From contig CM060733.1 in the NCBI GenBank assembly GCA_030704615.1, positions 59,210,001 to 59,274,000 on the forward strand: a stretch of 64,000 nt of DNA, written 5' to 3'. Under the pieces are notes generated by a model, which searched no databases, was not told where the DNA came from, and worked only from the letters and a program-made list of their open reading frames with translations. Made by a program: the position numbers and the translations under genes. Below, piece by piece: positions 1-35,450 of the stretch; the first letter of the stretch is position 1, and every line of letters starts with the position of its first letter. The DNA comes from Takakia lepidozioides (lineage: Eukaryota > Plantae > Bryophyta).

Positions 1-2660
1 AAAGGTACTTCAACATTACCCACTCAATATCAAGATTTCAAGGATATCTTTGAGAAGAAAAATGCAGACATATTGCCATAACATCGACCTTATGACTGTG
101 CAATTGAGTTACAAAAAGGAGCCCAACCACCATTCGGCCCAATCTATAACTTATCACAGACGGAGTTGGCTACATTACGTGAATACATTGATGAAAATTT
201 GTCGAAGAACTTCATCCGACATTCAAAATCGTCTGCGGGGGCGCCTATCTTGTTTGTGAAAAAGAATGAGGTATCATTATGCATGTGTGTGGACTATCGC
301 GGTCTCAACAAAGTCACAATCAATAATCGTTATTTGTTGCCGCTGATTTCTGGGCTTCTCGACCAACTGGGACGAGCGAAGATTTTCACCAAAATTGACT
401 TGAGATGAGCTTATAACCTTGTACGGATAAAAGAAGAAGAGGAATGGAAAACAGCTTTTCGAACAAGGTATGGACATTTTGAATACAGTGTTATGTCTTT
501 CGGTCTTACAAATGCTCCAGCAATTTTCCAACATATGATGAATGACATCTTTCGAGAATTTTTAGATGACTTTGTAGGCATCTATTTGGACGACATTTTG
601 ATATTTTCTCAGAATGAAGAAGAACATGGCCGCTATGTACGCCTTGTGCTTGATAAATTAAGAGAAAAATGACTATATGCCAAGTTGGAAAAATGTCTTT
701 TCCATCGATCTAAGGTCGAATTTCTGGGCTACATTATTTCCGACAAAGGCGTCTTTATGGATCAGAAGAAAATACAAACCGTCATCGAGTGGATTAAACC
801 AACTTATTTCCGAGATGTACAATGTTTTCTGGGATTTATAAATTTCTGTAGAATCTTCATCAATGACTACTCCAAATTGATGCACCATTGACACGACTCA
901 CAGGGAAGGACAAATTTGTATGGGACGAGAAGGCTGACCAAGCATTTGAAAGGTTGAAGCAGACATTTACAACGGCTCCAATACTGGTACATGCAAACCC
1001 ATCTAAACCATTCTTTTTGGAAGCAAATGCATCGGACTTTGCACTTGGCGTGGTACTCTCTCAATACGGTACAGATGGCCGACTGCACCCTGTTGGTTTT
1101 CGTTCTCGCAAATTTTCCACTGCGGATATCAATTATGAAATCCATGACAAAGAACTTCTAGCGATTATCGATGTTTTTGAGAAGTGGCGTCATCTATTGA
1201 AGAGAGCTAAACATCATGTCACTGTCTATACCGATCACAAAAACCTCGAGTATTTTATGAGTGCTCGTGTTTTGAATTGACGTCAAACGAGATGGAGTAT
1301 GTCACTAGCAAGGTTTGATTTTGTTATTACCTACCGTCCCGGACATCTTCAAGGAAAACCAGATGCTCTTTCTCGACGATCGTATCTTGCGCCAAAAGAA
1401 GGGGGATGCAGCTTTTGACCAACAAAAATCCATCATCTTGAAACCAGCAAATCTCCAATTGAATATGCTATCCATGTCCACCTATGACGATGCAGAGATC
1501 GTAAAGGAGATTTAGGAAGCACTGAAGAGCGACCAATTTGCTACGACACTACGAAGTCAACTAAATCGACCTCGAGACAACCCACATGTTACAAACGATT
1601 TCGAATTCAAAGATGGTTTACTTTATTTCAAGGGACTTCTCTATGTACCTCCAAGACCTACACGACTGCGAATTCTTCAAACATATCATGATCTTCCGGC
1701 TGCAGGACATTTCGGCTTCAACAAAACAATGGAATTGATATCCAGGGACTATTGGTGGCCGCAGATGTGGAAACTCGTGAAAGAATTTATAAAATCTTGC
1801 GACACGTGTGCTAGAGCGAAGGGACCACGACATCGACCTTATGACATTCTTCAACCATTACCCATTCCCAATGGTTCATGGTCCTCCGTGTCTATGGACT
1901 TTATTACGGACATTCCAATTTCCAAGACCACCGATTCAATCATTGTTATTGTAGATCGTTTTACGAAGATGACATTTCATTCCATGTATTAAGACGGTTA
2001 CCGGCGATGAAACTGCAAGACTCTTCCTCAATAATATCTACCGCATTCATGGACTCCCGAATGACATCCTATCTGATCGAGGACCACAGTTCATATCAAA
2101 TTTCTGGAGAGGATTATTTCACATATTGGATACTAAGATCAACCTCTCTACAGCTAATCATCCACAGACTGATAGTCAAACCGAACGTGTAAACCAGATT
2201 TTGGAGCAGTATCTTCGCTGTACGATAAATTATCACCAAGATAATTAGACGGACTTTATGTCATTGGCTGAGTTTGCCTACAACAACACTATACATTCTT
2301 CGACCAAACAAACTCCATTTTTCTCTAATTATGGTCATTATCCTCGAGCAAACCCTTTCCACATAAAGACTGTTGGAAGCCCTGCTGCAGAAAACATTGC
2401 TACTCGTCTCGCTACGATTCACAATGAGCTTACATTCCACCTCGCAGAAGGAGTATGCAGATCAACGTCGCCAACTCCAACCCCAGTTCAAGGTCGGAGA
2501 TCGTGTGTGGCTTCTTCGACGGGACATACAAACCTCACGACCATCAAAGAAGTTGGATTATCAACGCCTGGGACCATTCAAAATTATTCGACAAATAAAT
2601 CCGGTCAGTTTTCGGCTTGAACTACCACGAAGTATGCGCATCCATCCTTGTCAGCCAAGT
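1..2660 (+). pseudogene. pol: pol pseudogene: reverse transcriptase, RNase H, integrase
   Basis: [37 protein letters not shown] (about 583-594), ASDFALGVVLSQ, NYEIHDKELLAI, VYTDHKNL, H..GH/YWWP..C..C zinc-binding motif, SMDFI..VIVDRFTK, GPFKI. Several stops and frameshifts. Confidence 0.95.
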
Positions 2661-3250
2661 TAGCTTCAAGGTAAAGACTCCACATTCAATGTACCTGATA
2701 TACGCTAAGGAGAGAGGAGCATCACACATCAGTATATATAGCTACATTTCCAGCACTTCCAACACTCTTGCATCTTGTATTGGCAGTATGGAGTCACAGG
2801 AACCAGATACATTGGAGTTGTCGCTTACCCAGCTACCAGATCAGTCGTTCCAACTCTCACGATCTTCAACATCACGCCGACGATCTCGAGACGATGGGCC
2901 ACCAATGCGACGCGTACTTCCTCGTCTCGACCCCGTACGACGGCAAGTGGACCCTACTCGAAGTCTGATAATTCTGTTGGAGGTTGAGGTTGAGGCTTCG
3001 GATCCAGAGGGCAACGAAATCATGTTTGAAGGCAGCTTCGAAAATCAAAATGCTCAAATCACTGCGTGGTCCCAAGTTCAAGGTGTTGGACACTATTGAT
3101 GGTTGCAGGGACCTATAAATCATTTGAGTCAAGAACGAAGAGCCGAATACTTGGCAAGTACCATTCGTCGGATTTTGGATTTTCTCCAACTCTAAGCAAG
3201 TCCAAGATTTTACCGCTCCTCGAGGAACTCGGTGCTAGAGGAGGTGGTAA

Positions 3251-5336: not shown

Positions 5337-5584
5337 GCTGGCGCTTAGGTCCATCTAAGTCTAGGTAGCCACAAGATGTGATAGTGGCCATAGCCTCACT
5401 AGGTCCTCCACCATTCTCCCTACTACACTCAAACTCAATAGATCAAGAGGCCGGGTACAAGAGTTGCCCCATCGTTAGTCGTCGTCTTGCAACCTGTGCA
5501 CTTGAGCCTGAGATCTTGGGTATTGACTCATATGAGCTTGGCCTCCCATGTCTTGTGAACTGCCATTAGTCATATCCACTGCCA

Positions 5585-5728
5585 CTATCCCAAGCAGTGT
5601 GGACATAACCAATCTCCATCAGGAACCCTCTCAAGAGGTGGTGTCAAACATCCCATGTGCCAACCTCTTGAGCATCGATCACACACCAGCATAGTGGCGG
5701 CACCACGAGCGTGCCCACATAGCATGCA
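5585..5728 (-). pseudogene. PHD finger at the integrase C-terminus
   Basis: CMLC..MLVCDRCSRGWHMGCLTPPLERVPDGDWLCPHC, a canonical C4HC3 PHD. Confidence 0.95.
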
Positions 5729-7119
5729 ACGCAACCCTGCAGGTACCACTGCAAGGTTGGGATCTATCCTCCCATCCACATATGGAAGGTGACATGGCGC
5801 ACAATTACGCATATGATGCTTCCATACCATGCCATCTCGACCCTCCAGAATCAACACTCCTGAAGGCAACACCTCCCTGACCCTTAGAATCACACGTCCT
5901 GCTGTGACATCCAAGGTCATAGGCGCTGTCTGCTGCAGATACACATAGTCCCCAGGGTGGAAATGCTGAACACCTGGCCGATATCCCCCTCCACGTATAG
6001 TGACATACCTCAATGTGTCTCGGTGTTGGGCAATAGCAAGATTCTCAAAAGCCATAGCATGACTCTCTTGAACAACTCTGCCCGTTGGGCACATGCTTGT
6101 GTCCACACATCCGGATCATCAAGGTTGAGGACTACTGCAGCCTCCTTGTGAATAGACGCAGGCAAATCTAGCTCTCGGCCAAAGAGAAGGAAATATGGTG
6201 AGAAGGAGGCAAGTGATGTTTGCTTGCTAAACCTGTAGCCCATGGCTAGCCAAAGTATCTGAAGATCCCAATCTCCTAGGTGTCCTTTTTGCAAACCATA
6301 CTTGCGCAAACTCCTCTTCACCGTCTGCACCACTCTATCTGCCAAGCCATCGGCCTCAAGATGATCCCGAGAAATGGTACGCTGGTCTATCAAGGCTTTA
6401 TCACACAAAGCCTGAAACTCCCCCAAGAACTCTCTCCCTTGGTCCGTGAGTACCTCAGCTGGAGCACCGAATCGGCTAAGCACACGATCCAGGAATGCAT
6501 ACGCAGCCCCCTCACTAGCCTTGTCAGGCAATGGAACCAACTCAATCCACTTGGAGAAGTGCTCCACCATCACCAACACATATCTGTGGTGACGCATTGT
6601 CAGTGGCAAAGGCCCTGCGAAGTCAAGACTCCACCTATAGCCCAATCCCATGATGGGTAAAGGATACAACTATGGTGTAGGGGCATTGAATGAAGCACGC
6701 ACCCTGTCACACACCATGCACCTAGCCACGAACTATTGCACATCTGTGTGCATACCACGCCACCAATACTGCCCCTGCAGTAAACTATGAGTGCATCGCA
6801 CTCCAAAATGCCCCAACTCCTCATGGGCATGCCGCACTAACCGTGCATGCTGTGTTGGGTGAGGCACGATCCTCACCCGACCATCCTCCCACACTCGAAC
6901 CCACTTGAACCTCTTGGCTCGTTGTAGGATCCGATCCCTCTCCTTGGCAGTCACACTAGCTGCCGTGTTTCCAGTGCGGAGGTAGTCCAACACAACCGAA
7001 TCCTCATGTATATCTCTAGCACCACCTGGCTCATCACTAGCCTCAGGGTCCTCAGACACTCCGTCTACAGTCATCACTGTTGTAGGTCCAACCTGACCTC
7101 CCGATGCCAAGATACACAA
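5729..7119 (-). pseudogene. Retroviral-type DDE integrase with HHCC zinc domain
   Basis: HAHEELGHFG..YWWRGM..C..C; WSLDFAGPLP, VMVEHFSKWIE, FGAPAEVLTDQGREF, ADGLADR. In-frame TAG stops at 6733 and 6670 and a frameshift near 6070. Confidence 0.93.
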
Positions 7120-7759
7120 AAAGGCAGATGCATGTCATCCCGGCACCATCTCCTTGTCCGTCTCACCATGCCACCGAGCTCTAGTGTCATCCTGCTGGTT
7201 CGTGCATGGATTGCAACTCAATCCAGCCGCATCCCTATTGACCAAACCCGGTCGATGCACAACCCGAACATGTCTCTCATGCTCCTCCACCGTAGCACGA
7301 GAGGCAAAGCAATTCCTGTAAGCCTCAGGAACCGCCGTATACGTCGTCTCTCTCCTCTAGTGACAATAGGTCCAATGTCAAGCTCCCAATTGCCCTTCGT
7401 AACTGTAACCTTAAGTCCAGCAGACTTAGAGGTAGAGGACGCGTCCCATGGTTGCTATGTCGCAACCTCTTGAGCAGTACTCCCTGCCTGCTTAGTCAAT
7501 GACAAGGCCTCATCCTGCCCCATCATCTCATCCTTGAGGACCTCCTCAACCCGAGAAGAATCCCCAACCTCATCCATCACAGCCGCCTTGGCTGCCAACT
7601 CCCTCTGAACCTCGAGCACCTCCCATGTGTGTCATGGATGTCTACACCACGTGGTCCTCACCGGCTCGCCCCCACTCACTGCCTGTACCGTCTCGGTAGA
7701 CAGAGAGACCGTCAAGGGAAGTGCACTCCGCACTCTTTGTTGCTCAGCCATAGCCAAGC

Positions 7760-8704
7760 TGATAATCCAGGTCAAGCAATTTAGATCCATTGCTTGCCCC
7801 AACACCTGACGACGTGATGCCTTAGAAAGAGAAGGCACCGTCGTGGTCCCAGTGGAAAAACCCATAGCCCGCTCTCGCTCGTCGGCATTAGGCTCCACTA
7901 ATTGCTGCAACTGAGCATCCCACAGGAGGCCAGGTCCATTATCCCGGAAAACATGCAATCCTGGGAAGCTGAGCAGTGTAGGTAGTGCTGCTCGTGGTTG
8001 ACCCACCTTGTTGACCACTGCCAAAGGCGAACGTCATCGTGTCTCACACGCTGAGACTGCCTCCCTGTGTCCAAAATGCTATCCGTTGTGAGATGTGCTG
8101 GCCGCTGCACCCCATCAAATGCACGCTTAAGCAGTGCGGGTGGCATCAAGTTAGTCCACCATAACCGTGGACGATGAGCCCATGACGCCACTGCACCTGC
8201 ATCCAGCAACACTGCTGACCCAAGCCACGACTGGACTTGATGCACACTGGCCATCACCCTGGCCTGAGAATCGCCCATCAGTGGCACATTCTCCAAGATG
8301 TATGCTGGAGATACAGCCTGATGAAGCTGTAAGTGACGCAAAACCCGCACCATCTCCCAAAACAGACCCAACCTCAAGTCTCGCAATCCATTGCCATGCC
8401 CAGCTGATGAATACCCTTGGCAGGGCCAACCTGCCACTACCAAATCAATGAAGCCAACCCGCTCCAAATCCTGCGCCCCCAGCAAAGAGATGTCTGCTGG
8501 CAAGGCCTGTTGATATCCACGAACCGCAGACACCGACAACAACTCAGGGTACTGCTACACCAACTGAGCAATATGACGGAGTGAGACGCGTCGTGCAGTC
8601 TCATCCTTCTCCACATACAAGTAACGCCGTACTCGTACACCTGCCTGTAGAACAACAGCTAATCCGGTGCTGATCCCGCCAAACAAGTCCAGAAGGCAAA
8701 TGCC
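7760..8704 (-). pseudogene. DNMT3-like C5-cytosine DNA methyltransferase domain within pol
   Basis: Motif I LLDLFGGISTG, II YLYVEKD, III DI, IV DLVVAGWPCQGYS, VI ILENV, VIII AHRPRLWWTNL, IX ERERAMGF, X RRQVLGQAMD, all in order. One TAG at 8555 and one frameshift near 8025. Confidence 0.93.
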
Positions 8705-9149
8705 TTCATCCGGACACGGCCACACAATCGGTGTGGTGTCCAATGGTGACAACTGAGGTGGTCCTGGTGCAATCCCCGCACTGTCCTCCTCTCCTGACGG
8801 TACATAAGCCTCTATCCAGGCTTGTTGCACACGACAATCAGCAACCCGCTGCAAATCCTTGCTCGAGCCCCACAATGGAGTGTGAGCAACCATGGTAGAC
8901 AACTCCACCATACCATACAAGTCATCCTGCTCTCCCGGAGGTGACACATCCTCCGAATGAGCGTTACCCTCTAGCAACTCTCCAGGGCAACTCACTGCAG
9001 CTGTGAATGCTGCCAGTGTTGGCATCTTGCCTCGTTGGGCAACCGCAACTTCTCCTATGAACGTCACAGGGAGCTGCACACGCCGGCCCTCCCCTAACTG
9101 CCATCCAGACCTATAGGAAGCTGACTCATCCCAAAAATCCAGGGTGAAG

Positions 9150-9463
9150 CCCATGGGGTACAACATTGCCCCACCAACAAGGACATCGTACGAGACCGCG
9201 TCTGTCACAATGGCCTTGGCTCTCATCACTGAGCCATCTGTAGGATGATCCGGCTGTAGTCTGATAGCCAACTCATGCCGTGTCATGCCCCAAGACTGCT
9301 CTGATCCTCCCAGAGATGTCTGTATCTGGAAAGGGCATGGCTCCATATCCGCCTCCGTGAGGCCCAAGCCTGCAATAGCAGCTCTGCCCAACATCAATGG
9401 CTGAGCTCCCGAGTCCAATAAGACTCGCAGTGGCCGGTACCTCTTGCCTGCCGGTCTACTCAA
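9150..9463 (-). pseudogene. Retropepsin aspartic protease
   Basis: RVLLDSGAQ catalytic motif and YDVLVGG (ILG-like) motif, in the same frame as the downstream DNMT. Confidence 0.85.
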
Positions 9464-10056
9464 ACAGAAAATACCATCCTAGTTGTCTAATATGACAACT
9501 CCAGGTGTCACCATGGCGCGCTCAATGGCTGGCCTAGCTGGCAGCTCCATCAACCTAGTAGCTGCAGCTTGCCATGGCGCCGCTGTGGCAGTCTTGACCC
9601 TCACATCCGAGGATCCCTCCGGCACTACACCTCCCACTATCTCCGCAGAAGATGAAGTAACCTCCCCACTCTCACAGAGTGTAGCTGCCAGCCTGAACAC
9701 CTCAGCTGGTCTTACCCCCGGCGTTGCAATCATGGTAGCCGAGAACAATGGAGCCTGGCACACAGCTGTGGCCGCCCCCAGCAGCATACTAGCTGCCGTA
9801 GCCTTGGCAACACTAGGTAGTGGTGCTGCCCGTGTAGCTCTCCCCAATGGCATAGTAACCTCCGCCTCGGTAACAGTCGGGCGAGAACTAGGTGCCATGG
9901 ACAGCGTCGACACTGTCTCCGCCAATGTGAATGACTGAGGAAGCCTGGCCTGACGGCTTACCTCCCCACGCTGTGGATCCAACTCCACCTTCGCACCCCG
10001 TGGCTCAGGAACTCGTGCTGCTCCTCGAGTCACTGCCGCAGCTGACTCCACTTGCA

Positions 10057-10740
10057 CTAGTGGTAGTCCTGCCCCGCACATAGTGGTAGTGGTGCCCCAC
10101 CCACAGTGGTAGTGGTAGTGGCACCTCTCACTAGTGGTAGTGGTGCCCCACCCATAATGGTAGTGGTAGTGGCACCCCTCACTAGTGGTAGTGCTGCCCC
10201 GCACATGAATCCCATGCCTCTCATGTCTCCTCCCTCAGGAGCAGGAGGTGGACCATCCAGCCTTGGAGCCGATACCACCTGAGCTGTGGCCATGGCAGCG
10301 AGCCTCTGCTCTAGCTGCTGAAGCCGGTTGGCCATGCCTTGGTCACCACCCTGACCTCCGCGTCCTTGGCCATGTTGAGCTTGCCCTTGGCCTGCACCTC
10401 GTGCCTGGCCACCTCGTCCTCTCTAGGCTGCTCCACCTCGCCCCCGGCCACCATTGTTCCCTTGGAACTGGCCTGGGCGCAACTCAGGATGCAAACCATA
10501 GCACTGGGCCTCTCCATGCCCGTACTTGCCACAATGCCCACACTGCAACTGTGCAGGTTGTGCCTGTGCCAAACCATTGCCTCCCTTTGGGCAATCCTTC
10601 TTGACATGGGGTCCTCCACATGTCCAGCACACCACATCCGCCCGTTGTTGGCTTACAAATGAAGGGAGAGACCCCTGCATCTGAGGTCCTCTCTGTTCTT
10701 CCCTGGGCTTCACTTGAGCCCCCTTGTTGCCTTGAGTACA
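10057..10740 (-). pseudogene. gag: gag C-terminus with two CCHC zinc knuckles
   Basis: CWTCGGPHVKKDC and CGHCGKYGHGEAQC, followed by an RG-rich segment and GAPLPLVRGATTTT repeats (10057-10200). Confidence 0.8.
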
Positions 10741-12504
10741 TTGAGGAAACTACGAGGAAGGGAAACTAGAGCAATGTCTATCCCAAGCACGCTCTCATCC
10801 CAACACCCTTTTTTTTCCTCTCTTCTCTCACTTGTATGACCATGAGAGCATCTTGTAGACACTCCTCAAACCGCCCTCTCATGAAACTTGGCCTCCAAGG
10901 CCCCATGCAAGCCTCCACAGGGTCCGCCAGTGCCTCCTTACGTCCACCAGCCATTCCTCCGAATGGAACCACCTCAGGAAACCACACCATTCGCTGAAGG
11001 TTCAAAAATGGAGCAAATAGAGGTATATATAGGCCCCAACAACATTCTGTCCAAAGGAATTATCTGCAGGCTGGTCTTCCCCATAGTTAAGAATTGGGCT
11101 GAAAACCCGAAAAGATTACCTGCAGGGAAGTAATCCCCTTTGTTAAAACGCAACAGGGAGGCAATTCCGACTTTTCTGCCGGATCAGCTAGCTCAAAACC
11201 GTTGTTCTTCAGAGCCCAGCCTCCCCATCAAGGTCCCACGAAACGAGTGAAAAAGATTTATTTATTTATTTATTTTTATTTTTTTTCACTCTAACTGTTC
11301 GCGGCCTTCCGTGGCTCCAACCGCCACGACTCCTCACGGCCCGCCCTAGGCACTCGTTGGCCACGGGCTGCCCAGTGATACCCCGTGGTACCACTCCCAC
11401 GAGCCTTCACGGCCCGCCATCCCCACGATCTGGTCACCGTACCCACCCGTTGTATCTGCACCACGACTTCCAACGGTCACGGTCAACCATCACGACCTGG
11501 GCTCGTGGTATCTTGTGATACCGCCCCAACGGTCCATCACGACCACTATTCCCTGTGATCCCTGGAACTCCCAACGAGTTCCCATGCGTTCCCGAGGCGT
11601 TCCCTGCGTTCCCACGCGTTCCCGAGCTGGGGTTTGATCCTGCACCTGCTGCCGACAAGCTATGGCTTCTGCGGAGCCATCAGCCCTGTTGCCCTGCACT
11701 CCTGAGCTCTCATGGCCCACTAGAAGTGCCTCCAACTCAACAAGCAAGCTATATGCTGCCCAACAAGCTCCATTTTCTTCATGAAGCTCACAAAAACAAA
11801 TCTGAAAATACACACCTTTACAAACTTGGTGCATCTGCACTTCTCATGCATCTCCCTTGGCTCTAGGGCACCTCGTTGCTGCCCTTCCAGCCCCGCTCTT
11901 GCTACTCCAAGAGCCCTTACACTGCTGAGTTTCAGATTGAAACTCCAACTCAACATATGTTTCACAAGTGCACTGATTTGCACACAAGAAAGACCAGCCC
12001 CCTCTCTTCACTCATACCTCTTCATGAGCTTGGAGCTGAAGCTCCCAACGGGCTGCGATGCATCTCCTCGCAGCTCCACCATTCGGCTACTCCTCATCTA
12101 CCCGCAACAACTGATTTCGAGCAGAAATACTTGGAGCTGATCATGTCATCTCCAACCTGCAACATGTTAGCTCCCATGCGCAGCCCACATTTCTGCAGCT
12201 CCTTAACTCGGCCTGCAGCTGAAGAAGACGACCACCAGTTCGCCCACTCGTGGCCAACATCTCCTCTGCTTCACACTAGAAGCCCAAACTTGGTTGCCAT
12301 AGCGTTGAGCTATGCAACGCCGCTCTTCAACATAGGCTACTCGCCTCTCTATCCATTGCAAACCTGCAACCTGTTCGTCTTTGTACTCTATCCACTTTGG
12401 ATAGGCTCATGCACGGATCCCTGCACTCTAGGCTGAACCGTTTTTCATGATCTGAAAACACAAGTGCTACACAACTAACTCGAACCTGGCACTCACAGAC
12501 TCGA

Positions 12505-12520
12505 GCTCATCTTTCTCGAG
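12505..12520 (-). promoter_or_regulatory. Self-complementary primer-binding site
   Basis: Plus-strand GCTCATCTTTCTCGAG adjoins the LTR and is the exact reverse complement of LTR positions 5039-5054. No TGG tRNA-type PBS. Confidence 0.75.
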
Positions 12521-12841
12521 TGATAAGGAAAGAAATGATACAAGCATACAAGCTCTCTCAAACTCACACACTTGCACATGAAAACATCACTCATATATTA
12601 AGTCGAGCCAAGTGCACCCCACGCCATGGGAAATCCACACTACGATGCAATAGCTAGACGTGGTGAGGCTCAACTCGAGAAAGAAAGATGAGCCCACCGC
12701 GATCTGCCGTGAAGATAACAACGCCAGGTGCCCAAACATGTATTGGCCCCTGGATTGACACTTGGATCAATCCCAAATATCAATATATAAAAGCTAGCCA
12801 TTTCCTAGCTAACTTCACACCAGTGGTAAAATAACTTAAGA
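12521..12841 (-). repeat. 5' terminal repeat, segment B2 only
   Basis: Direct repeat of 4886-5202; segment A does not follow. Confidence 0.9.
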
Positions 12842-13464
12842 GACTATCTAAGTAGTCGTCTGTATGACTACATGGCTCCGGAACGGGTGGAAGGCTAGTC
12901 AACGACAATTGACCAAATTTAGCTCACCACTCATAGTCATTTCCAAGACTACAGTGTACATGGATGAGGTTGCGTAGTCATGATGACTATTGGGGATTTT
13001 GTAATTTGGTGTCTATAATACAATTAAAACACCGTATGATCACATGAATGAGTAATGGGTGTATTGGTTCGCAGGTAGTGAACTATAAATTTTATAGCAA
13101 AGAGATAGGCTGCCACGTGGTTTTTTATTATTATAAAAATACATTATGCCACATGGCGCAATGCGGTGTGACACGACGTCTGAGTTTTTATTTATTTTTA
13201 AATAAATATTTTTGAATTTTTTGTTATTTTTTTAATCAATTGCGCCTCGTCACATTGCGCAGCAGTGGCGACTGCGGTATGGTATATTGACTGTAGTGAG
13301 AGATATCACTTAGTTCATCTGATTATAGTCATCCGGACCGTACCATCCCGTACTCATTGTATTTACTTGGTTTGCACGATTTACAATCATAGAAGTCATA
13401 TGTACCATTTATGACTGCAGAATAATCATATATACAGTAATAAATACTGCGGTCTGTTGTAGTG
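12842..13464. mobile_element. Probable CACTA-like non-autonomous element end (host of the DNMT element; left part about 4580-4664)
   Basis: GACTA/TAGTC subterminal motifs on both sides of the insertion; ends in TTGTAGTG (reverse complement CACTACAA). Confidence 0.4.
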
Positions 13465-14829
13465 TTGTTTCGAGAGGCCAAACCCATAGCCTATACAGTG
13501 CCAGAACTAACCTTCGTCCCTAGTGACAGTTTGTGGAAATATTACACTGATCCTCGCACGGCAGTATGTAAGGCCATTGATGATCATATTGAACGGTTCG
13601 CCATCCTAAAACATTGTTTCATCAAGGGCTTGCCACCAGCAGAAAGAGTCTTCCTACAAAAACAACATTATCATTATGAAGACGAGATGGTGGGACCCTT
13701 GGAAGAGAGGCTTAGATTAAAATCTGCAAAGATTGGAGTAACACACCCTTCTCCCACCAAGGCTATCCATTTCTTGGCCAGCTCTTGCGGTTGTCATGGT
13801 TTTAGTCATGGTTAACTAGAATTATCTACTTCTAATTAACTAGGACATTTGGATATTTATATTTGTATTTTGGGTTTTGGAACTGCATTTGGTCTCATAT
13901 GCCAAGTGAGGTGTCAAGGCTCATTTGGGACATAAGGATGGGTTTTCCCCTTATGAGTGTGGAGGAGGGCTCATCTTCTTGTAGTTGAGCCTCCACGAGC
14001 CTATCTCACCTCCATAGCTCTATGTATTGGAGGGAGTGTGTTGAGGGCTTTATAGGGTGGATTCCTTTAGCAAAGGTGCCTTTGGCTTGACTTAGTTTAT
14101 GTGATTGAGTGGATTCATGAGTGGAGTGTTTCCATTGTGTTCACTTTCATTACTCTACAAGAAGATGACCTTATGTTTGTGAGTGCGTAGTGTAAGGATT
14201 AGCTTAGCACTTGTATTGATGTACACCAAGGAGTGAGAGAGTTAGGAAAAGCTCAAGTATCTCACAAGGCTTGTAAGGTGTTGCAAGGGAGAGTGTTTTT
14301 GCATTGCATCAAGGAGGTAGAGCAAGGAGATAGCTCTTGTGCTTGCAAGGTGTTGCAAGAAAAACACATGTTTGGGTGTTGCTTGCACCAAGGAGTTGGA
14401 GAGCTAGGGAAGCTCTTGAGTCACAAGATTTCACAAGGATTGTAAGGAGGAAGTCTTGTGTGGAAGCATAGATTCTAGGGTTTGAGAATCCTCTCTATGA
14501 ATCATGGAGTTAATGTCATATGCCATGGCATGTGGAAAGCTCTTAAGAGCTTGTTAGAGCTCATTTTGCTCTTAAGCTAGGGTTGGGGGAGCTCAAATGG
14601 GTGCATGTTGTGGAAGAGAAGACAATGAGCTACAACTATGAGCTTAAAGAAATACAAGGCATAGTTAAAAAATACGAATGGACCAATATGGAGCCTCGTA
14701 TGCCGATACTATATACTTATGTAAATGGAAACATGACCTCCACAAGAAAGCCACCTCAGAACATAATGATACCTTCTTTGATTGCCCGACAACACAAAAA
14801 TTGCAACACAATATTCAAAAGATAACTGA

Positions 14830-17534
14830 GTGTTACCGCTAGACCAACATTAACTATTCAGCGCATATTCGTACTCAGTATATTACGGAACTACAAACCT
14901 CTGACAAACGCTTCATTAGCCTACCAAAAAATATTCCGAACTTACATATATCCCTATCCGAATGCAATCCAGACATAGATGTTCTATGTACCCACCCACA
15001 TATCCAGACCCATCTTGGCATTGCCTACATATATGGACCAGTGGGATGCTACATTGGAAGCATATTACTCGCTAAATTGAACTGGCTATAGAATATGTCC
15101 CATCGAAACCCCATCCCTAGCCTGCAACCCCAGATCCCACCAACATTTGCGATGAAAGTCTCCACACTCCTCCAGTGATATGCCCACGATTTGCCTTCCA
15201 AGTGTCCAACCACACCCAACAAACTCTCTCTTGCACACTACACTCCCCACACCCTCATAGACTTTCTTACAACACAACTTAAACTCACTCACTCATACAT
15301 CTCTAACCCTCTCACATGTCCCATGGCTACTCCAGCTTATATAACACTAATCAATGTTTTGGCTCTCTAGGCTTGGCTAGATCTCATCAATGGCAAGGAA
15401 GAGGAGTTGTACCCCCCCGGACTATACTATAGCTACCGAAGCAATACATTGGGCAAGAATAGCTGCCCATACATCCACAAAAGCCTTTACCGTCCTGTAC
15501 ATTCCTCACAATAACCATAACAACACTTATCACCCTATGCTGGCAAGCCCCCCCGGAATGTTCATATTTTGATATATTCGACCCACGTTCGATCACTTAC
15601 GAATCAACTCCGCTATTACCCAAACCTATATATGGCATATCAAGAGCCATCCTTAACTAAACTAATCTATGTACACCACTCGAGCAACCCACAAGTACCT
15701 TGTACTTTCTTTTCACAAAACAATTACGAATTAAGACATTTGTTTGGCCCCACATCCGCCATAGTTTATGAACCGCAACAAGTGCTCCATATTTACCTCC
15801 GCTTCAACTAAGACAAACCATGGAATATGCAGGCCATTCCACGATCATTTTGGACAACTCAGCAATTGCACCCAACACCTATACATTTTGTACACCGGAT
15901 TTATATCCAAACCTAGGCCCTCTAAATTTCCCTCCACACCAATGTGCGTATACAAATGGCTCCCTAAAAGATGTACATGCGGGGTATGACACATACTTTG
16001 CCAATGGAGAGAGAAGACTCCAGCCAAAGCCGACGTAACTAAGAGTCACCTTGTCTTGCGGCTACTCCCCTTTTCGGGGGGTGGGCCCTATTATACTCTG
16101 CCAATACCAACTCAAGAACATACAACCGTCTCCCAGGTCGCTAGAATATTTTACCTACAGAACTCATGTCTATACATGATGCCTTAAAATATCTCTCATG
16201 CCAACTCGGTTCGACCTATTACCTTTTCACAGATAGCTTAATAGTCTCTTTGTATCTTCTCTCTAACCAAAAGCTTAAACCCTCCTCCCAAATTCATCAC
16301 CTTGACCTTAATCTCATTAAAACCATCATAGATATTGCGCACTCATACCCATTACAATTCCATCTTCATAAAGTCCGGTCTCACAATATAGGCATCACGG
16401 GTAATGAGATAGCAGACCAACTTGCCCAACTTGGAACCATTCAACCTACTGTATAGCCCACAAATGACCTTATTCACTCAACACACACACATCCATTCTG
16501 GTTGACATCAACTAAAGCTAGAGTCCTAAAATAGGCCCCATTTGGGACTTACGTACACACATTGCGACTAAGGAGCAAATCCGTACGACGTTGCCCACCT
16601 ATCTGAACTCCTACATATCCAAATGGGTCGCATCGCCTCATCTGCTCCACAATATGTCTAATCACTTCTGGATATCACCGATAATCACTGATGCCCACAC
16701 TGATGCCCAAATTAGACAAATGCTCCGATTTCAACATGGACAATACATTGACAACGTCCAACGACGTAATCTATTCTGGCTTTTATTATATCCACATAGG
16801 CATTGTATGTTAGGTTATGCCATGCCCGACCCCCTCAGGTGGACACATTGACGCATCTTCTTCTCCACTGTAAACATCCCACTATCCCTGGACTTCACAT
16901 TTCTCGACATAATCGAGGAGTCTGGCAACGTCATAAACTTCTACTCACGCACCCTAAATCTAGAAGAGACAACCTCATTAATGCAAGCACGTTTGAAGGA
17001 AGACCACCGGACCGCACAATACCCTCATGGCTGCTACCATGTACATGCATTACCTATCCATGTCTCTGTCTGGCAAGACTATGTCATGAAATTCTTTTTG
17101 TCAAAGGACTCCCCATCTCGTTGGCAGTGCCAACAGCCCTCCCTTCTGTCACGACAGATATCCGGACCAGTCCATTATGTACAATGTGAAAACTATGAAT
17201 CCTTTTTGGCCCTCCATCAATATGGAGGAATACCGCCCTTTTTACGATCATCACTACTTGTGTATGAGGAGGAGCCCACTCTCAAAATAGTCTAGTCCTA
17301 AAAGAAAACCTCAAGCTACCTTCGAAATATACCACTCCCCTATTACACACATGCACTTCACAACCATCACTTCACTTTTATCCGAGTCAACAAAAGAAGT
17401 ATTGAAAATGGGCAGCTTACCGCTTAGTAATTGGTTCCAGCTCCCGTAGAGCCCACCCCCAAAAGGGGTAGTACCCATACTGGGAAGAGGGCTCTTATTT
17501 ATGCTAGTTTCGGCTGGCATCATATATATATATA
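14830..17534 (+). mobile_element. 5'-truncated, degenerate Dualen/RandI-like non-LTR retrotransposon (MTase-like fold, RNase H, CCHC finger, RLE)
   Basis: RNase H YTNGS/ELMSIHDAL/FTDSL/KVRSHNIGITGNEIADQLA; C..C..DTLTHLLLHC..RHN; C.C..C.C..RLCHEIL (decayed RPD motif); structured 3' end plus (TA)n. Confidence 0.7.
16005..16088 (-). repeat. Short LINE-3'-end/SINE-like structured element inserted in the RNase H region
   Basis: Minus strand GGGCCC-ACCCCC GAAA AGGGG-AGTAGCC GCAA..TGACTCTTAGTTACGTCGGCTTTGGCTGGAGTC(TC)n, homologous to the other copies. Confidence 0.7.
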
Positions 17535-18249
17535 CACACAAATGAATTAAGGGAGCAAAATCAAAAGTTCGCTAGACAGTGCTAGTAGTGGAATTATCAG
17601 GAGCTTGACTTTGTCTACTTGGACCTATTAACACGTGCCACCTGTAATATGGCCACTTCGCTAACCATGCCACCTCGTTATTCTCACCACATGGGCGTTA
17701 TATAGAATTTACATGTGGCCATATGAATAAACGAAATCACCTTGATTTGGTCTGCATAAATTTGTTAACTCATCATATTAGTATTACTAGGGTAGCCTGT
17801 GTCGTTGGCCCAAGTGTCAAATGTCATCTAAGCCCAAGTGCAATCTCCTATGTATGTAAGTGCCTCTCCTATGTCAAGGCCCAAGTGCAACCTCTAGGGT
17901 AGCCTCTGCAGTTAGCCCAACGGTCCAATGTCATCTAAGTCCAAATGCATTTTTTTTCCACAGAGCCTACGACCAGATTTGACCCGGAGACCTTTCCCTT
18001 TATATCTATCCTCTGGAGGCTCCAACCATTGTCCCAGGAATTCCCACTCTGCAATTTTTTTGTGAATTTCCAGCAACCCAAAGTACTCGAAATTCCAAAT
18101 CTTCCACACTGCAGGTCTCTCTGTAAATTGACTGGACGTTAAAGTAATTTTATCTTTATCTCTCTACTAGACATGCAATAAAAATATAAAGTTTCATTCA
18201 AGAGACACGATGGCCCAATGATCATGTCCATGTTTCTTAAGTGGCCAGC

Positions 18250-18362
18250 TAGCCACTTCCGGTTCGGATAGAGCCCACCCCTGAAAGGGAGCAGTACCCG
18301 CAAGGGGAAGAGGCTCTTATTTACGCTAGCTTCGGTTGCCGTCATATATATATATATATATG
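18250..18362 (+). repeat. Isolated LINE 3'-end structured motif with (TA)n tail
   Basis: GAGCCCACCCCTGAAAGGGAGCAGTACCCGCAAGGGGAAGAGGCTC..GCTTCGGT..(TA)n, matching 17449-17534 and 28900-28992. Confidence 0.8.
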
Positions 18363-18707
18363 TCCCTGTTTCTTAAAAAATAAAAAATAAAATGAAACAA
18401 AAAATTCATACCTATATCCCAATCCGCTCTTTATATCCAGGTATAGAAAATAGAATTCTCTATTAATTTAGCAAGTATTTGGTGACAAAAAGCTAAGAAC
18501 CGGGCAACACTGGTAAAATATACATGTGCAACAGTTTATGTACAAGCGTGGGATACACCCTGAGTGATGAGCCTAAGTGATCCAAGGAAGAGAACGGAAG
18601 AGCAGCACTTGCGACGAGTTTCGAAAGTGCGAGAGTGAGGGACATGTAAAGTAAGAACCTCAACTTGTAATGCTTTCCAGCCTGAAATGATTATGTAAAG
18701 CTAGAGC

Positions 18708-21550
18708 TCAGCAGAAGCTGATTCGTAGCTCGCTGCATTCATCTGTTGCAGCGGCCAAGCAGCTCGACTGCGCACTACATACTTCCGAAGTATGTCCATC
18801 ACTGAGCCCCCGAGCTGTATTTTGTAGCTGCATGGATAGTTCAAGTGCAGAATTATCTGTGACTGCGGGTCGAGGAGGTGGGTGAAGACTGGAATTACTC
18901 CCATACCGGTAGCCACTCTTGCACTCACCATTGAAATTGAACTTGTCCAGTTGTACAGCCAATGGCCAGCTCAGGAGCTCCACAATTTTCGTGTTGCGAA
19001 GCCCACCGGCGTATAATCCTTTGAACCCTGGAATACAGTTGACGAGGGCAATGGTAGTGTTCACTGCTTCATCGTCATCCCCGCACACAAACTCGGTGTG
19101 AGGATTGTTCACGTCTGGAGTCTCTGTCAAGAGTTTCTGCATATCGAAATATTGATCTAGTATATCTCATGTCAGGTGCACAATATTGCAAATATACATA
19201 GTCGTCTCCTTGAACTGGTATATGATTAAATTGATAGCTTAGAGATCTCAGTTGACCAGTTCCAAAGAATACTAGGCCTGGCACCTTGTATAATTAGTAT
19301 AGTACACTAGTGTACACTAATTGACCAGCGTTTCCTCTCAAATCCATGGTGTTGGTTCCAACTTAGTCCAAGTTACAGACAATTTGAAAATTTTCCAGAT
19401 CTTTTTGCCTCACATTGCCTTATGACACTGCAAAAATTGATCTCCTCAAATGTACACACTGATCCACCGAAGGTACCAGCCGGAAGATATACATTTTTTC
19501 ACTAGCCTGCAGAATTCCCATGACATCCTATCACTGTACCTCACTAACGAGCTGCACTTGAGCATGAATATCCATGTGGTGCACATAGATCCATGCCTAG
19601 GAAGAGAAAAAAATAGAAATATTGAAAAAATGTTGACGCAGGCTGCCCAAGCGAGCATGAACTATGGTGTCTGATCTTCACCTTGAAGGGCAAAACAGAG
19701 GACAGACACCTGTTTGCACTTATCGTGAACAGATACTTGACCAGACGACCATACCGACAAGAAGATACAACTCAAACTTGTTACGAACACACATGACATC
19801 CATACCTTCCATTTATGCTCTAACGCAGAGATAGTCAACTCGTGATCTAATCCTCAGAGTTCGACATGCAAAGTATTACGCTTTTGTGTATAGGTACAGC
19901 AGTGCCTCAGATGAACGAATTCAAGCACTTACAGGGAAGGCGGTTTTGAAGGCAGTCGTCCATCGCACTCTAACCGCGTGACACAATGCTCTCTTGTTGA
20001 GGCAAACTGATGACACCTGGCCCCAGTTGCTCTCATTGAGAAAATAACCGATGTTGGTTGCATCCACGATGATTTTGTTACGGAGATGCTTCGCAAGAGA
20101 CATCAACAGTACTGCTCTGTCCTGCAGGGATCCCTGCCCAGATCCAAACCTTGGCATGCTCAGGATATGATCCACGTTTGACAATTCTCAGACCCGCACC
20201 TGACTAATTCATCTGAGCCTACTGTTAGCAGACGAAAAAGTTTCAGTGGGGTCAGAAACGAGGGAGGGACTTAAATATCAGCTCTAGATCTATGAGCTGT
20301 AATAGTGTTTATTAGATCAGCTCGCTAGGTTTTATGATTGGTGCTTGCAATGGTGTCAAATTGTAAACTTGTCTAGGCAGAGTGATTGATTGGACTGGAG
20401 GGCGGATCACGTGCAGTCAAGTTTGAGAAGACAGCAGGCCTCGAAAACCACCAATCCAATGTACAAATAAAACTTTATAGCTCCCAAAAGTCGTGCGAAT
20501 ATTCATGATGTACATATGTCGGATTAGGTGATCGACGGCTCATTCCAGAGTTGCTCAATATAGTGTAGTTACAGAGTTGCTATCTAGAAAGATTTAGCGA
20601 GAGAGTGCTCGAGAAACAGACAGATGATGATCGGCTATCGGAATGCATATCTTATAAGAAAGGAGCTCACCTCAGACACACCACAAAATAGACAAAAAAT
20701 CACGTGCGTTAAAGGTAAGCTTCTCGTGTTCACGACCATTTTACCTACAACTTAGGCGAACTCGATTGAAAAGCAATCGCTAGGAAGCAAGACACATTAA
20801 ACCACTGTAATTTAAAGAAACAGAGCTCTGGAAGAGTCCGACTCTTGAAAAGAGTCCTGAGAAGTGTATCCTGGCATGACTCGACCATGATCACTGCTGG
20901 AAAGAGGCTCAGAAGAACTGCAGCTGCCTACTTGTGCACATGATGGCAAGTTATCTCGCATTCAGCTGCCCTGACCTGTGTTCACATAAGGTTCAAACGT
21001 GAATTGTCCAGATGTAGACCTGCAGTCTACGAGTGATGATCACCTGCCGGGTCAGCATTCACCCCGTGGCAATACGTTTCGGGAAGAATGGAGGGTACAT
21101 CATACTTGTATCAGTATGTTTTTGGCACTCTCTTCCCGAAAACCCGTGCAGGTTCATCCAACCCAGGATTCAAATTTCAAATGAATCGACACAAAATTTC
21201 AAAGATAGTTGCATATCGTTGTACACTTCAGATTATAGATATCTCTAGAGCTGAAGGAGTAATATGACCGTGCATGTACGTGCAGACGAATATCGCAAAC
21301 TTACGGAGGGGCCCCAGATGATGATGTCCCCCGCAGCAGCAGCGTCCGCATTCGACAAGCCCTTTACTGCAAGATGCAATGGAATTTGCTTGGAGATCTC
21401 TGCAGCAGCCACGGCCGCTTTTTCGACATCTCGGGATCCGACGATTACTCTAAGGCCTGCATTAGCAAAATGGGCGGCGAGCAGACCTCCCCTCGTGCCT
21501 GTGCCTGGGACCACTGATATCGTTAATGCCTTCAGGTCGAGCGCCGCCAT
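18708..21550 (-). CDS. F420-dependent NADP oxidoreductase (FNO/NpdG, COG2085)-like protein, about 291 aa; exons 21550-21305, 20133-19933, 19136-18708
   Basis: Rossmann PGTGTRGG, VIVGSRD, NADAAAAGDIII, KIIVDATN, FVCGDD, AGGL. GT-AG junctions join in phase 0 with no internal stops. Confidence 0.8.
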
Positions 21551-28899: not shown

Positions 28900-28992
28900 A
28901 GAGCCCATTGCTGAAAGGGAGCAGTACCTGCAAGGGGAAGAGGCTCCTATTTACGCTAACTTCGGTTGGCGTCATATATATATATATATATA
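28900..28992 (+). repeat. LINE 3'-end structured motif with (TA)n tail
   Basis: Near-identical to 18271-18362. A partial copy at 29300-29351 ends in (TC)n. Confidence 0.8.
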
Positions 28993-30099: not shown

Positions 30100-31470
30100 C
30101 CCACCCAGGCGCACTGTTGGGAGCGGACGGAGTTGGCCGCACCGTTCGGCAGCCCTCAGGAATTTCCATCAACCAATGTCAGATGTAAGGCAAAAGCGGT
30201 CATATGTCCGTTCAAGTTGGGCCTCATCCGGAGTCCCCTATTGGGTGTTGAGCTTCGATACGGCATCAACGGCACTTACTAACACTCCGGCAACACTATA
30301 ACATATTCCCCTAACTCCGGCACACTGTCTAAGTTGGCGGCACCTTTCGGCAGCCCTCATGGTGGTGGTGAATTTTATAGCAACCAATGTCTGATGTAAG
30401 GCAAAAGCGGTCACATGTCCGTTCAACTTGGGCCTCATCCGGAGTCCCCTATTGGGAATTGAGCCTCAATATGACAACAACACACTTATTAACGCTCCGG
30501 CAACACTATAATATATTCCCCTAACTCCGGCACAAGGTCTAAGTTGGCGGCACCTTTCGGCAGCCCTCATGGTGGTGGTGAATTTTACAGCAACCAATGT
30601 CAGATGTAAGGCAAAAGCGGTCAAATGTCCGTTCAACTTGGGCCTCATCCGTAGTCCCCTATTGGGAATTGAGCTTTGATACGGCAACAATGCACTTATT
30701 AACACTCCGGCAACACTATAACATATTCCCCTAACTCCGGCCCACGTCTACATTGGTGGCACCTTTCGGCAGCCCTCATGGAGGTGGTGTATTTTACATC
30801 AACCAAATGTCAGATGTAAGGCAAAAGCGGTCAAATGTTGGGCCTCATCTGGAGTCCCCTAGAATTGAGCTTCGATATGGCAATCAACGCACTTCTTAAC
30901 ACTCAATAACATATTCCCCTAACACCGGCATACTGTTTAGGTTGGCCGCACCTTTCGGCAACCCTTACGGAGGTGGTGAGTTTTACATCAACCAAATGTC
31001 AGATGTAAGGCAAAAGTGGTCAATGAGTGAGCGACATTTCATTTCCTACATGTTCCGTTCAAGGGCCTCCTGACCCCCCTAGTCGGAATTGATGCGATAT
31101 GGCCACAACGGCACTTATTAATACTGCTGCAACACCATAAGATATTGCCTCCCACCAGGGCACGCAATCGAAAGCGGGTGGCCGCACCTTTCGGCAGCCC
31201 TCGTGGAGGTTGTGCATGTAACGCATCACGCAAAGCACATTCCATTTCATACATGTTCTTTCAAGTGCATCTGAGTCCCCTATTCGAATTGAGCATCGAT
31301 ACGGCAACAACGGCACTTGTTAATAATCCGGCAACACTGTAACATATTCCCCCAACCCGGGCACATCTGTCGAAGTGGGCGGAGTCGGCCACACCTTTCG
31401 GTGGCAAATTTACAATGTCGGATGTAAAGCAAAGCAATCACGCAACATTTCAAGCGCCTCCGGAGTCCCC
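30100..31470. repeat. Tandem repeat, about 210-bp unit, about 6.5 copies
   Basis: GGCCTCATCCGGAGTCCCCTA recurs at about 30219, 30431, 30641, 30841, 31063, 31270 and 31455; copies diverge toward the edges. Confidence 0.9.
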
Positions 31471-32799
31471 TTTTCGTATTATTGTTATTATTATTATTAT
31501 TATTATTAAAAAGAACATGGGACAGAGGCCCCGAAAGTATTATTATTATTATTATTATTAAATAATAAATAATGTACCCCTGTTTCGAAGATATTTTGGC
31601 TGAAAAAGAAACGATTAAAAATAATATAGAATCGTGCGGCCGGGCGTCGCAGTACTCCAGGCTCCATAATAACTCACTAAGCACGCGCAATAACTGAGTT
31701 AGTGACTCGGTTAGTGGCTGTGCCAGTTTTACCGCGCTATGATTAGTCAGATGCGAGCCTGGAGATTAGTTCCTTTGGAGCTTTGTTACTCTGAGGGTTA
31801 ACTAGCCGAATCCTGGTCGCCAGCTAACTGGCGCAGTTAGTGAGTAGGTAGTGAGTGGTGCGCTGGTTATTCTATTGGGGGTCCAGCACACGATGCTATT
31901 GTTTTATTTTTTTTAAAGCTGATGGTCGACTATTATAGTGTATAAACGGGCCAGTACGGTTGCAGTTATTAGCGGCGAGAGTACAGAAATCTAAAAATAA
32001 ACTGGCTTGTGGGATGCCCTAAAAATATTGCAAGGCCGCAGCGGTGGAGCATGTGAGCGGGTGGTAGAAAACAATATGCGAGAATGACAGGTTAGTTAGG
32101 GCAGTATAACTGGGGTTATTTAAGTATAACGGAACCAGGGTTGTCTAATTTGGGTATCACCTACCGCGGTTAATCCAGGGAATGATTTGATTCCCTTCAG
32201 TACAGGGGCCCATATATAGCCTTGTAGATTCTGTAATTACTAATCAGTGGGTAATTAGTAATTATCTAACCCCCTGAGTGATTAGTGTGAAGTTGCAGGA
32301 GGAAACAGAAATTGCTCTGTAAATTATTGGGAGAATAAAATATCATTGATGTCTTTGGCAATTTTTTCTTTCTTTCATTATAGAAAGGGAGTAATTAAGA
32401 GCTAGGCTTAGAAGAATATATAATGTATTTATTTCTGAAAGTGCCCAAGACAAAAGTTGGTTATTGGTGTTGAAAAGGGGCACAAATAAACAATTAAGTT
32501 TTTTGAGAATCGTGCAAATGATTAATATAATCATCACATGGACTCGGTGTATCATAGTTTTAGCCATCTATTTACCCACAAATGCAGTTTAGTAATTAGC
32601 AATCTGCTCTAGTTAACTATAATTAGCGCTAATTAAACACTCTTGTGGCAGTTTAACATGAGGGCACAATTTACGATGTTATCTCTACACCAAAATATCG
32701 CAATCATTCGTCCAATCACCTCTCCTGACATTCCTTTTTGTCTCTTTTGTTACTAGGAAGTTTCTACCTGTGCTCATTTACGATCATTTACAGGTGCGC

Positions 32800-33152
32800 G
32801 AGAGAGGAAGACTCCGGTCGAAGCCGATGTAACTAAGAGCCACTTCGCGCCTTACAGGTCTGTCCCTTTTGCGGTCGAAGCCGATGCGGATGTAGGAAGA
32901 GCCACTTCGCCTTACAGGTCCGGTCCCTTTTGCGGTCAAAGCCGATGTAACTAAGAGCCACTTCGCGCCTTACAGGTCTGTCCCTTTTGTGGTCGAAGCC
33001 GATGCGGATGTAGGAAGAGCCACTTCGCCTTACAGGTCCGGTCCCTTTTGCGGTCAAAGCCCATGTAACTAAGGCCACTTCGCCTTACAGGTCTGGTCCC
33101 TTTGCGGTCGAAGCCGATGTAACTAAAAGCGACTTCGTCCCTTTCGGGGTCG
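32800..33152 (-). repeat. Head-to-tail array (about 6 units of 55-61 bp) of the LINE 3'-end motif
   Basis: Unit GGGACCGGACCTGTAAGGCGAAGTGGCTCTTAGTTACATCGGCTTCGACCG on the minus strand, two alternating variants, ending GGAGTCTTCCTCTCTC. Confidence 0.85.
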
Positions 33153-34529: not shown

Positions 34530-35450
34530 GTATCCCTTTGTATGAGAAGACGGATTTCATTGACACCAGACCGATCAGAATATCATGCGAACGGTCGGAG
34601 AATCCCTGTTCGTTCTCATGAAAAATTAAGGGATTGTCTTGGTTGCACAACAACCCGAATGGATAGTGTGGAAAATGCGTCGCTCTCCCTTTGAGTGAGA
34701 AGATGGATTTTGTCCATGCCACAATCTGACTAATGGATATACTATCGGAACGGTCGAAGAATCCTTCTCATAAAAATAAGGGGATTGTCTTGGTTACGGA
34801 ACAATCTGAATGCATAATATGAAGCGAAAGTGCTATCCGTCAATGCCACATTCTGACCAATGGATATACCATCAGAACGGTCGAAGAGTCCCTGTCCGTT
34901 CTCATGAAAATTAAGGGATTGTCTTGGTTGCGGAACAATATAAACGCATAGTGCCTTTTGAGTGAATTTTGTCAATGCCACAATCTGACTGATCGAAATA
35001 CCATCGAACCGGTCGAAGAATCCCCGTCCGTTCTCATAAAAATGAAGGGATGGTCTTGGTTGCAGAACAATCTGAATGCATAGTGCGGAAAAGGTGTCGC
35101 TCTCCCTTTTAGTGAGAAGACGGATTCTGTCCATGCCACAATCTGGCTAATGGATATACCATCGGAATGGTCGAAGAATTCCTCTCCGTTCTCATGACAA
35201 ATAAAGGAATTGTCTTGGTTGCGGAACAATCTGAATGCATAGTGCGGAAAATGTGTCGCTCTCCCTTTATATGAGAAGACAGATTTCTTCAACACTGCAA
35301 TCAGACCGATCAAAGAATCGATGTCCATTCTCAAGAAAATTAAGGGATTGTCGAAATACCATCGGAACGGTCGAAGAATCCCTGTCCATTCTCATAAAAA
35401 TGAAGTGACGGTCTTTGTTTGCGGAACAAATCTGAATGCATAATAACGAA
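34530..35450. repeat. Tandem repeat, about 120-155-bp unit, about 6-7 copies
   Basis: GAACGGTCGAAGAATCCC..TTCTCAT..AAGGGATTGTCTTGGTTGCGGAACAATCTGAATGCATA recurs. Confidence 0.9.

Follow-up and report, generated by a model that had tools for sequence, protein, structure and literature searches.

A decayed retroelement in the window (the whole 64,000-nt stretch of DNA analyzed here) carries at 15230 to 15690 a segment that we read, at somewhat better than even confidence, as a degenerate N6-adenine methyltransferase (MTase) fold. On this reading it belongs to the PCIF1/DIRS clade and sits just upstream of RNase H within the long reading frame of a probably Dualen-like LINE; the prediction is that it has lost catalysis and acts as a module that binds nucleic acid. 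The element and its parts are as follows.

14640..17534, plus strand: decayed, 5'-truncated copy (~2.9 kb, 5' boundary approximate) of a multi-copy non-LTR element with a Dualen/RandI-like 3' half, delimited with sister contigs
15230..15325, plus strand: MTase-like part 1, a helix and the motif-I strand (alignment, sister contigs)
15328..15411, plus strand: MTase-like part 2, YSS...CFGSLG plus the strand that runs into the catalytic motif, corresponding to PCIF1 ycS..D..FGS.G (alignment, sister contigs)
15412..15425, plus strand: site equivalent to NPPF, reading V-V-break-P-P-D-Y in the window and F-A-H-P-P-D-(Y/S) in the main sister type
15414..15690, plus strand: MTase-like part 3, a helix, the FTVLYIP strand, and the predicted last two strands, MFIF and KLIYVH (alignment)
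15946..16453, plus strand: RNase H of the D-E-D-H-D type, split by a 100-nt insertion (Pfam PF00075 and motifs)
15993..16092, minus strand: short insertion belonging to the repeat family of the element's 3' end (contigs and sequence)
16790..16880, plus strand: CCHC-like zinc finger, split by a frameshift (by eye)
16900..17200, plus strand: putative restriction-like endonuclease (RLE) region with an RHN motif; sisters have Asp at the PD position (by eye)
17447..17534, plus strand: structured 3' end of the element, then (AT)n (fold, self-alignment, contig)

The host element is multi-copy, with sister contigs, mostly 80 to 95% identical, that span all of 14640 to 17534 and have a summed depth of about 1.5 to 30 times single-copy depth, short repeats excluded. 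It has several non-LTR traits, namely 5' truncation, a simple-repeat 3' tail, and short 3'-end copies with target duplication. The structured 78-base 3' end (fold z of -3.49, 0 of 200 shuffles) is joined by an (AT)n tail that begins after 17520, and a second single-copy contig over 17387 to 17532 links the element body to this 3' end. Short 3'-end copies lie at three further window sites, and one of these is the insertion at 15993 to 16092, whose target duplication is 13 nt long with 12 identical positions and which contigs in two of the four sequencing runs described below skip. No flanking target duplication was found for the long copy at 14640..17534. We note that another high-copy repeat, at 14400 to 14634, directly adjoins the 5' truncation of the LINE and ends near 14634. 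High-copy hairpin repeats of ~88 bases that resemble the LINE 3' end are present at 15993 to 16092 (minus strand), 18269 to 18356 (plus), 28900 to 28991 (plus), and ~32790 to 32860, and some end in (AT)n; they may be extreme 5' truncations of the LINE or a partner SINE.

An RNase H had been predicted downstream of the MTase-like segment in a first-pass annotation, and Pfam confirms it (PF00075, E = 3.8e-6, 16145 to 16453). In the window copy its first Asp is replaced by Asn and there is one in-frame stop, and the fourth conserved position is His (KVRSH...GNEIAD). The archaeal-type RNase H of plant L1 elements has Arg rather than His (PMC4640811), and a plant L1 with archaeal RNase H is therefore rejected as the host. 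A DIRS element is ruled out by domain order, since the MTase-like segment lies before, not after, RNase H, and a separately inserted PCIF1 retrocopy is ruled out because the sisters are continuous across the segment and the frame runs on towards RNase H. Farther downstream, the RHN and PD-like motifs that follow the CCHC-like finger are presumably RLE-like. Pfam has no match to the putative RLE region at 16900..17200, and among the 13 pieces of the element scanned it matched the RNase H piece alone, the other 12 giving nothing. The ESM Atlas returned unnamed eukaryotic clusters at 0.91, and the nearest family-bearing cluster for the finger is zf-RVT at 0.85, which we regard as a lead only.

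The first-pass annotation called the host a LINE, and this stands insofar as the 3' half resembles a non-LTR retrotransposon; the reverse transcriptase (RT), however, is missing from the window copy, so that the assignment depends on the 3' half. No RT match was obtained among 26 upstream ORFs scanned, and scans of 13, 19, and 113 window ORFs (the last being 113 of the 149 listed) found no RT, APE, or recombinase. Dualen/RandI elements have the order RNase H, CCHC, RLE (PMC5029228). The element appears to share this 3' order (PMC5029228, PMC4640811, and PMC3636483), with CCHC and RLE recognized here by eye, and the His-type RNase H is common to both; APE and RT are absent from the 5'-truncated window copy, so the class is read from the 3' half. 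On these sequence features the host is probably a Dualen-like LINE.

Elsewhere, the window contains an ordinary Gypsy pol remnant at 860 to 2700 (plus strand; RT-RNase H, integrase zinc finger, and SH3 domain), pieces of host genes (F420_oxidored at 21248 to 21550, minus strand; amino-acid transporter exons at 39247 to 41212, plus strand; PPR repeats at 50667 to 50996, plus strand), and degenerate tandem repeat arrays at 30131 to 31401, 34533 to 35459, and 63655 to 63998. The PPR repeats and the transporter exons, which are separated by introns, suggest that the host is a plant.

The peptide pieces from which the methyltransferase was first proposed are all found on the plus strand where that annotation placed them, in three successive frames over 15230 to 15510, as shown by the window translations.

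Frame of 15179-15367, plus strand: TLIDFLTTQLKLTHSYISNPLTCP
Frame of 15307-15429, plus strand: CFGSLGLARSHQWQGRGVV
Frame of 15381-15569, plus strand: EAIHWARIAAHTSTKAFTVLYIP

Four sequencing runs from one sample (X1 to X4), possibly the source of this DNA, contain 98% of the words of 14700 to 17450, and a plant metagenome contains 11%. Over 15190 to 15600 the window shows no differences from one contig of single-copy depth in each of the four runs, so the breaks are genuine mutations of the window copy and assembly error is ruled out as their source. About three frameshifts had been proposed. Two true frameshifts do lie within the interval, at 15325, where the window copy lacks 10 nt relative to sister contigs, and at 15412, where it lacks 1 nt; the proposed break at an LP junction is instead an in-frame cluster of indels (15235 to 15249, net 9 nt, by comparison with a sister contig), and two more lesions follow just downstream, within part 3, where the window copy has 1 surplus nt at each of 15570 and 15619. 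One sister contig has one base fewer at 15570, one fewer at 15619, and three fewer at 15625, with the consequence that its frame continues to about 15690, and the domain-like stretch likely extends this far.

A 407-nt sister contig from X3 (record 21) has a depth of 171 compared with 34 for single copy, corresponding to about five collapsed copies. It covers 15292 to 15569 with 34 substitutions, 10 added bases after 15325, and 1 added base after 15412, and these two insertions coincide with both frameshifts inside the interval first proposed. No stops are present over 15293 to 15569, as read from 30 of the 34 listed substitutions together with both insertions. Half of the codons that differ between the window and this contig are synonymous (12 of 24, with 6.4 expected if the changes fell at random; P = 0.013); third positions taken by themselves show no significant excess (13 of 27, P = 0.09). 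The open sister frame and the synonymous excess together indicate that the stretch belongs to the coding frame of a multi-copy element.

Descent of this segment from the PCIF1 clade is likely real on the sequence comparisons that follow, and it is supported as a targeted test of a single family only. The PCIF1 profile was built from genes on viral and metagenome contigs, with 58 of 96 domains kept after removal of near-duplicates. In a Pfam check covering 11 rows of the set or their ORFs, PF12237 was confirmed for all 7 viral ORFs and for both metagenome domains examined, and an AlphaFold model of the first profile row matches CAPAM 6IRX (E = 1.9e-12). The window read-through scores 7.6 bits on this profile, reached by 4 of 20,000 shuffles, and the X3 contig taken by itself reaches 9.3 bits, a score that 3 of 10,000 shuffles exceed. 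The highest scores come from joining two sister contigs, at 15.5 bits (0 of 10,000 shuffles) and, for an extended join, 14.4 bits (1 of 20,000); scaled to a Pfam-sized library, scores of 7.6 to 15.5 bits would correspond to E values of about 0.01 to 3. Best-of-58 pairwise scores are 16.2 and 21.8 bits, each with 0 of 1,000 shuffles, and the global alignment is colinear from STLP (AALP in the family) to KLIYVH (vf.lqn in the family). The N6-adenine MTase of PCIF1 type that had been proposed is thus upheld in its single-family significance and in motifs that are colinear over ~165 residues, but not by any library-wide match.

Pfam searches with the pieces and the one-break read-through yield no MTase match, do not reach the PF12237 gathering score, and yield no Dam (PF05869) match, and a PDB sequence search with the MTase pieces has no match. 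A profile-to-profile comparison of the type suggested at first pass counts against the proposal, with HHalign probabilities of 30.9% and 0.3% for two separate pieces. AlphaFold of a 63-residue piece alone has a pLDDT of 54.9, and a seven-sequence viral PCIF1 profile, which is too thin, gives 4.9 bits, a score exceeded by 8 or more of 5,000 shuffles. The differences between sisters and window are not significantly PCIF1-ward (9 up, 10 down, P = 0.15), and unrelated window chunks (1,704, six-frame) reach up to 6.6 bits on the PCIF1 profile and 10.8 bits on a Dam profile. This Dam profile, built from 25 phage domains that were collected with a motif chosen after the resemblance was seen, gives 6.3 bits for the window and -1.1 bits for the sister reading. 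When the segment is divided, a split made post hoc, its first 66 residues reach 9.4 bits on the PCIF1 profile (0 of 20,000 shuffles) and the other 107 reach 7.1 bits on the phage-Dam profile (3 of 20,000). Swapping the profiles, with the N-half on Dam and the C-half on PCIF1, gives null results.

The motifs are unevenly preserved. The motif-I strand reads HSYISNPLTC in the window and HSYYSNPLTC in the main sister type compared with ECFASPLNC in the PCIF1 family; the ECFASPxN motif is absent, with SYYSNPxT in the sisters and SYISNPxT in the window, and P alone is identical. YxS...DxxFGSxG is retained, and its S, D, F, G, S, and G match near-invariant PCIF1 columns; the Asp of DxxFGSxG is present in the sisters and is Asn in the window copy. 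Ten of the 22 near-invariant PCIF1 columns are identical in the sister reading. The catalytic NPPF is absent: the main sister type has HPPD(Y/S), and in the window the site is frameshifted. F-A-H-P-P-D, with Tyr or Ser as the next residue, is the reading both of the X3 contig and of loose ends in X1, X2, and X4. One single-copy sister variant has FAPPPD, and an aromatic residue at motif position 4 occurs in no sister variant seen, with Asp there instead.

The first-pass annotation had described the NPPF motif as degenerate, made no call on activity, and suggested looking for NPP(F/Y) in other copies. The motif is indeed degenerate, and the sister contigs, which could be read at this site, also lack NPP(F/Y) and show HPPD(Y/S) in the main type. 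As far as the copies seen show, the loss thus extends across the family and does not reflect the decay of one copy, and activity is unlikely. PCIF1 is killed by changing NPPF to APPA or SPPG (10.1101/485862). Given the changes from NPPF to HPPD(Y/S) and from ECFASP to SYYSNP, the LINE domain is probably catalytically inactive, like the DIRS MT domains.

We considered whether the domain is a functional N6-adenine methyltransferase whose motif is rearranged (HPPDY, the aromatic residue shifted by one) and which would mark the RNA cap or new DNA of the element. A Monosiga row of the PCIF1 family has His at the first motif position (HPPF; PMC4738411 supplement), the CrRem1 subgroup of the PCIF1/DIRS clade is thought to be active (PMC4738411), both prolines and D..FGS.G are retained, and the Tyr codon after PPD is kept by most of the depth at 15424 in two of the four runs (X1 and X2). 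However, every sister variant seen has Asp in place of the aromatic residue, the Glu of motif I is lost along with conserved Asn and Trp columns, and loss of Asn and Phe inactivates PCIF1 (10.1101/485862); we thus consider a working enzyme improbable. It is rather unlikely, too, that a domain of MTase ancestry persists with no remaining function, as a structural spacer carried in the polyprotein between RT and RNase H. The SAM-side YSS..D..FGSLG and the PP pair persist with proper spacing, and long relaxation would erase both, although half or more of the near-invariant PCIF1 positions do differ and the synonymous excess proves that the frame is translated, nothing more.

Similarly unlikely is a chance likeness, in which an unrelated alpha/beta segment of the LINE protein happens to share FGSLG and the PP pair with PCIF1. 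The region was chosen by eye out of 64 kb, the scores are only 7 to 15 bits, and a match from a library-wide search is lacking, as would be expected of chance; yet several motifs are colinear and correctly spaced, the sisters restore the frame exactly where the alignment requires it, and the shuffle controls stand at 0 of 1,000 and at 0 to 4 of 10,000 to 20,000.

In the reading that we prefer, of a captured and catalytically dead binding module, an ancestor of the element family would have taken up a PCIF1-like domain into the linker between RT and RNase H, a step supported by the sequence comparisons. In the captured domain, the Asn that activates adenine and the aromatic residue used for stacking would have been replaced, a loss of catalysis predicted from the motifs, and the domain would have stayed under coding constraint afterwards. 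The dead domain may have been retained as a nucleic-acid-binding module that holds the element's own RNA near RT and RNase H during target-primed reverse transcription. We infer RNA binding by analogy, following what PMC4738411 suggests for DIRS; that the capped 5' end of the element RNA is what the domain holds is a guess.

Searches for relatives of the element were largely negative. Word-indexed protein searches, each a weak negative, found no relative for the RNase H piece among proteins of 182 to 2000 aa, for the stop-to-X frame among proteins of 1045 to 3325 aa, or for the one-break MTase read-through among proteins of 44 to 140 aa. A DNA-pattern scan of metagenomes for element relatives had 0 matches, and pattern scans gave 3 bacterial-genome and 16 viral-contig matches, none of which is element-like by tblastx/tblastn. 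Viral scans with two element pieces returned one distant RNase H and otherwise nothing, and the ESM Atlas otherwise returned unnamed clusters only. Across the protein, metagenome, bacterial, and viral searches, no intact relative of the element was found. We note that eight giant-virus or viral contigs (L002-L009) have compact PCIF1-family genes, of which that in L007 has NPPR for NPPF.

A bolder proposal, which we put forward tentatively and consider doubtful, is that green-lineage Dualen-type LINEs carry an unrecognized PCIF1-derived domain in the RT-RNase H linker that connects cellular PCIF1 to the DIRS MT in evolution, and that grips the capped 5' end of the element RNA or, in some families, still writes m6A. 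If true, a long-unexplained retrotransposon MT domain gains a testable job. The function of the DIRS methyltransferase-like domain is stated as unknown in PMC3266345, and PMC4738411 ties retroelement domains of the PCIF1 clade to DIRS-type elements. A PCIF1-like domain in a LINE would add a second, mechanistically different retrotransposon class that keeps the fold without the catalytic motif, and a fold kept in two such classes points to a common role that needs no catalysis, for example holding template RNA. Laboratory Chlamydomonas has active Dualen elements (10.1101/2022.05.23.493040), and this role is therefore testable there, if its Dualen elements carry the domain too.

In the literature covered (full-text searches and passages of PMC5890265, PMC5029228, PMC3636483, PMC5718144, PMC4640811, PMC3266345, PMC6338049, and 10.1101/2022.05.23.493040), adenine methyltransferase domains in retroelements are reported for DIRS-type elements only. 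We found no earlier report of a PCIF1-like domain in a LINE, and the segment is probably a new variant of the PCIF1/DIRS clade. For Dualen, the one methyltransferase named in this literature is a SET domain at the N terminus of a cryptophyte element (PMC5029228). Cytosine C5 enzymes are reported from LINE ORF1, DIRS, and Gypsy elements (sources include PMC5890265), and in SymbioLINE-Dnmt and KnitGypsy-Dnmt3 a methyltransferase has likewise been captured by a retrotransposon (PMC5890265). Those enzymes, however, are cytosine C5 methyltransferases with conserved active sites, and that of SymbioLINE-Dnmt is in ORF1, whereas the segment described here lies inside the RT-RNase H polyprotein (PMC5890265). 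The window also contains, 5 kb from the LINE, a decayed Gypsy-type pol at 5400 to 10300 (minus strand) with a C5 DNA methylase (PF00145, E = 7.5e-12), an aspartic-protease motif, an integrase, and a PHD finger. It resembles KnitGypsy-Dnmt3 (PMC5890265); should the host be a land plant, it would widen the range from which DNMT-bearing Gypsy elements are known.

The LINE segment and PCIF1/CAPAM (PF12237; PDB 6IRV-6IS0) have in common a colinear core of an (A/T)LP helix, P(L)xC, Y-x-S, D-x-x-F-G-S-x-G, and PP, as well as a hydrophobic strand ending in P. They differ in that ECFASP is SYYSNP and NPPF is HPPD in the LINE segment, which falls below the Pfam threshold and is embedded in a mobile element. 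No WW or helical domain of the CAPAM type was recognized in the LINE segment; the cap pocket of CAPAM also includes a helical domain.

The DIRS1 MT (Dam-like) domain (Group-2 clade 1; PMC4738411 and PMC3266345) is likewise retroelement borne, PCIF1 related, and catalytically degenerate, and PMC4738411 assigns the DIRS domains to the PCIF1 clade and regards them as likely inactive. The active-site motif is degenerate in both, with HPPD in the LINE and mostly AFPP in the DIRS rows (PMC4738411). By eye, GSLG-x-A-x-x-H-x-W...F-A-H-PP in the LINE parallels GSLGT-DALAH-SW...Y-AFPP in DIRS (PMC4738411 supplement), although D..FGS.G in the LINE segment is PCIF1-like and not DIRS-like, the DIRS comparison being by eye only. 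DIRS elements have the order RT-RNase H-MT, a tyrosine recombinase, and terminal repeats (PMC3266345); the LINE segment, unlike the DIRS MT, stands before RNase H, which is followed by the CCHC and RLE-like motifs. Since the stretch from GSLG to PP looks as DIRS- or phage-Dam-like as it does PCIF1-like, the best interpretation of the segment is as a member of the already known PCIF1/DIRS clade that occurs here in a new host element.
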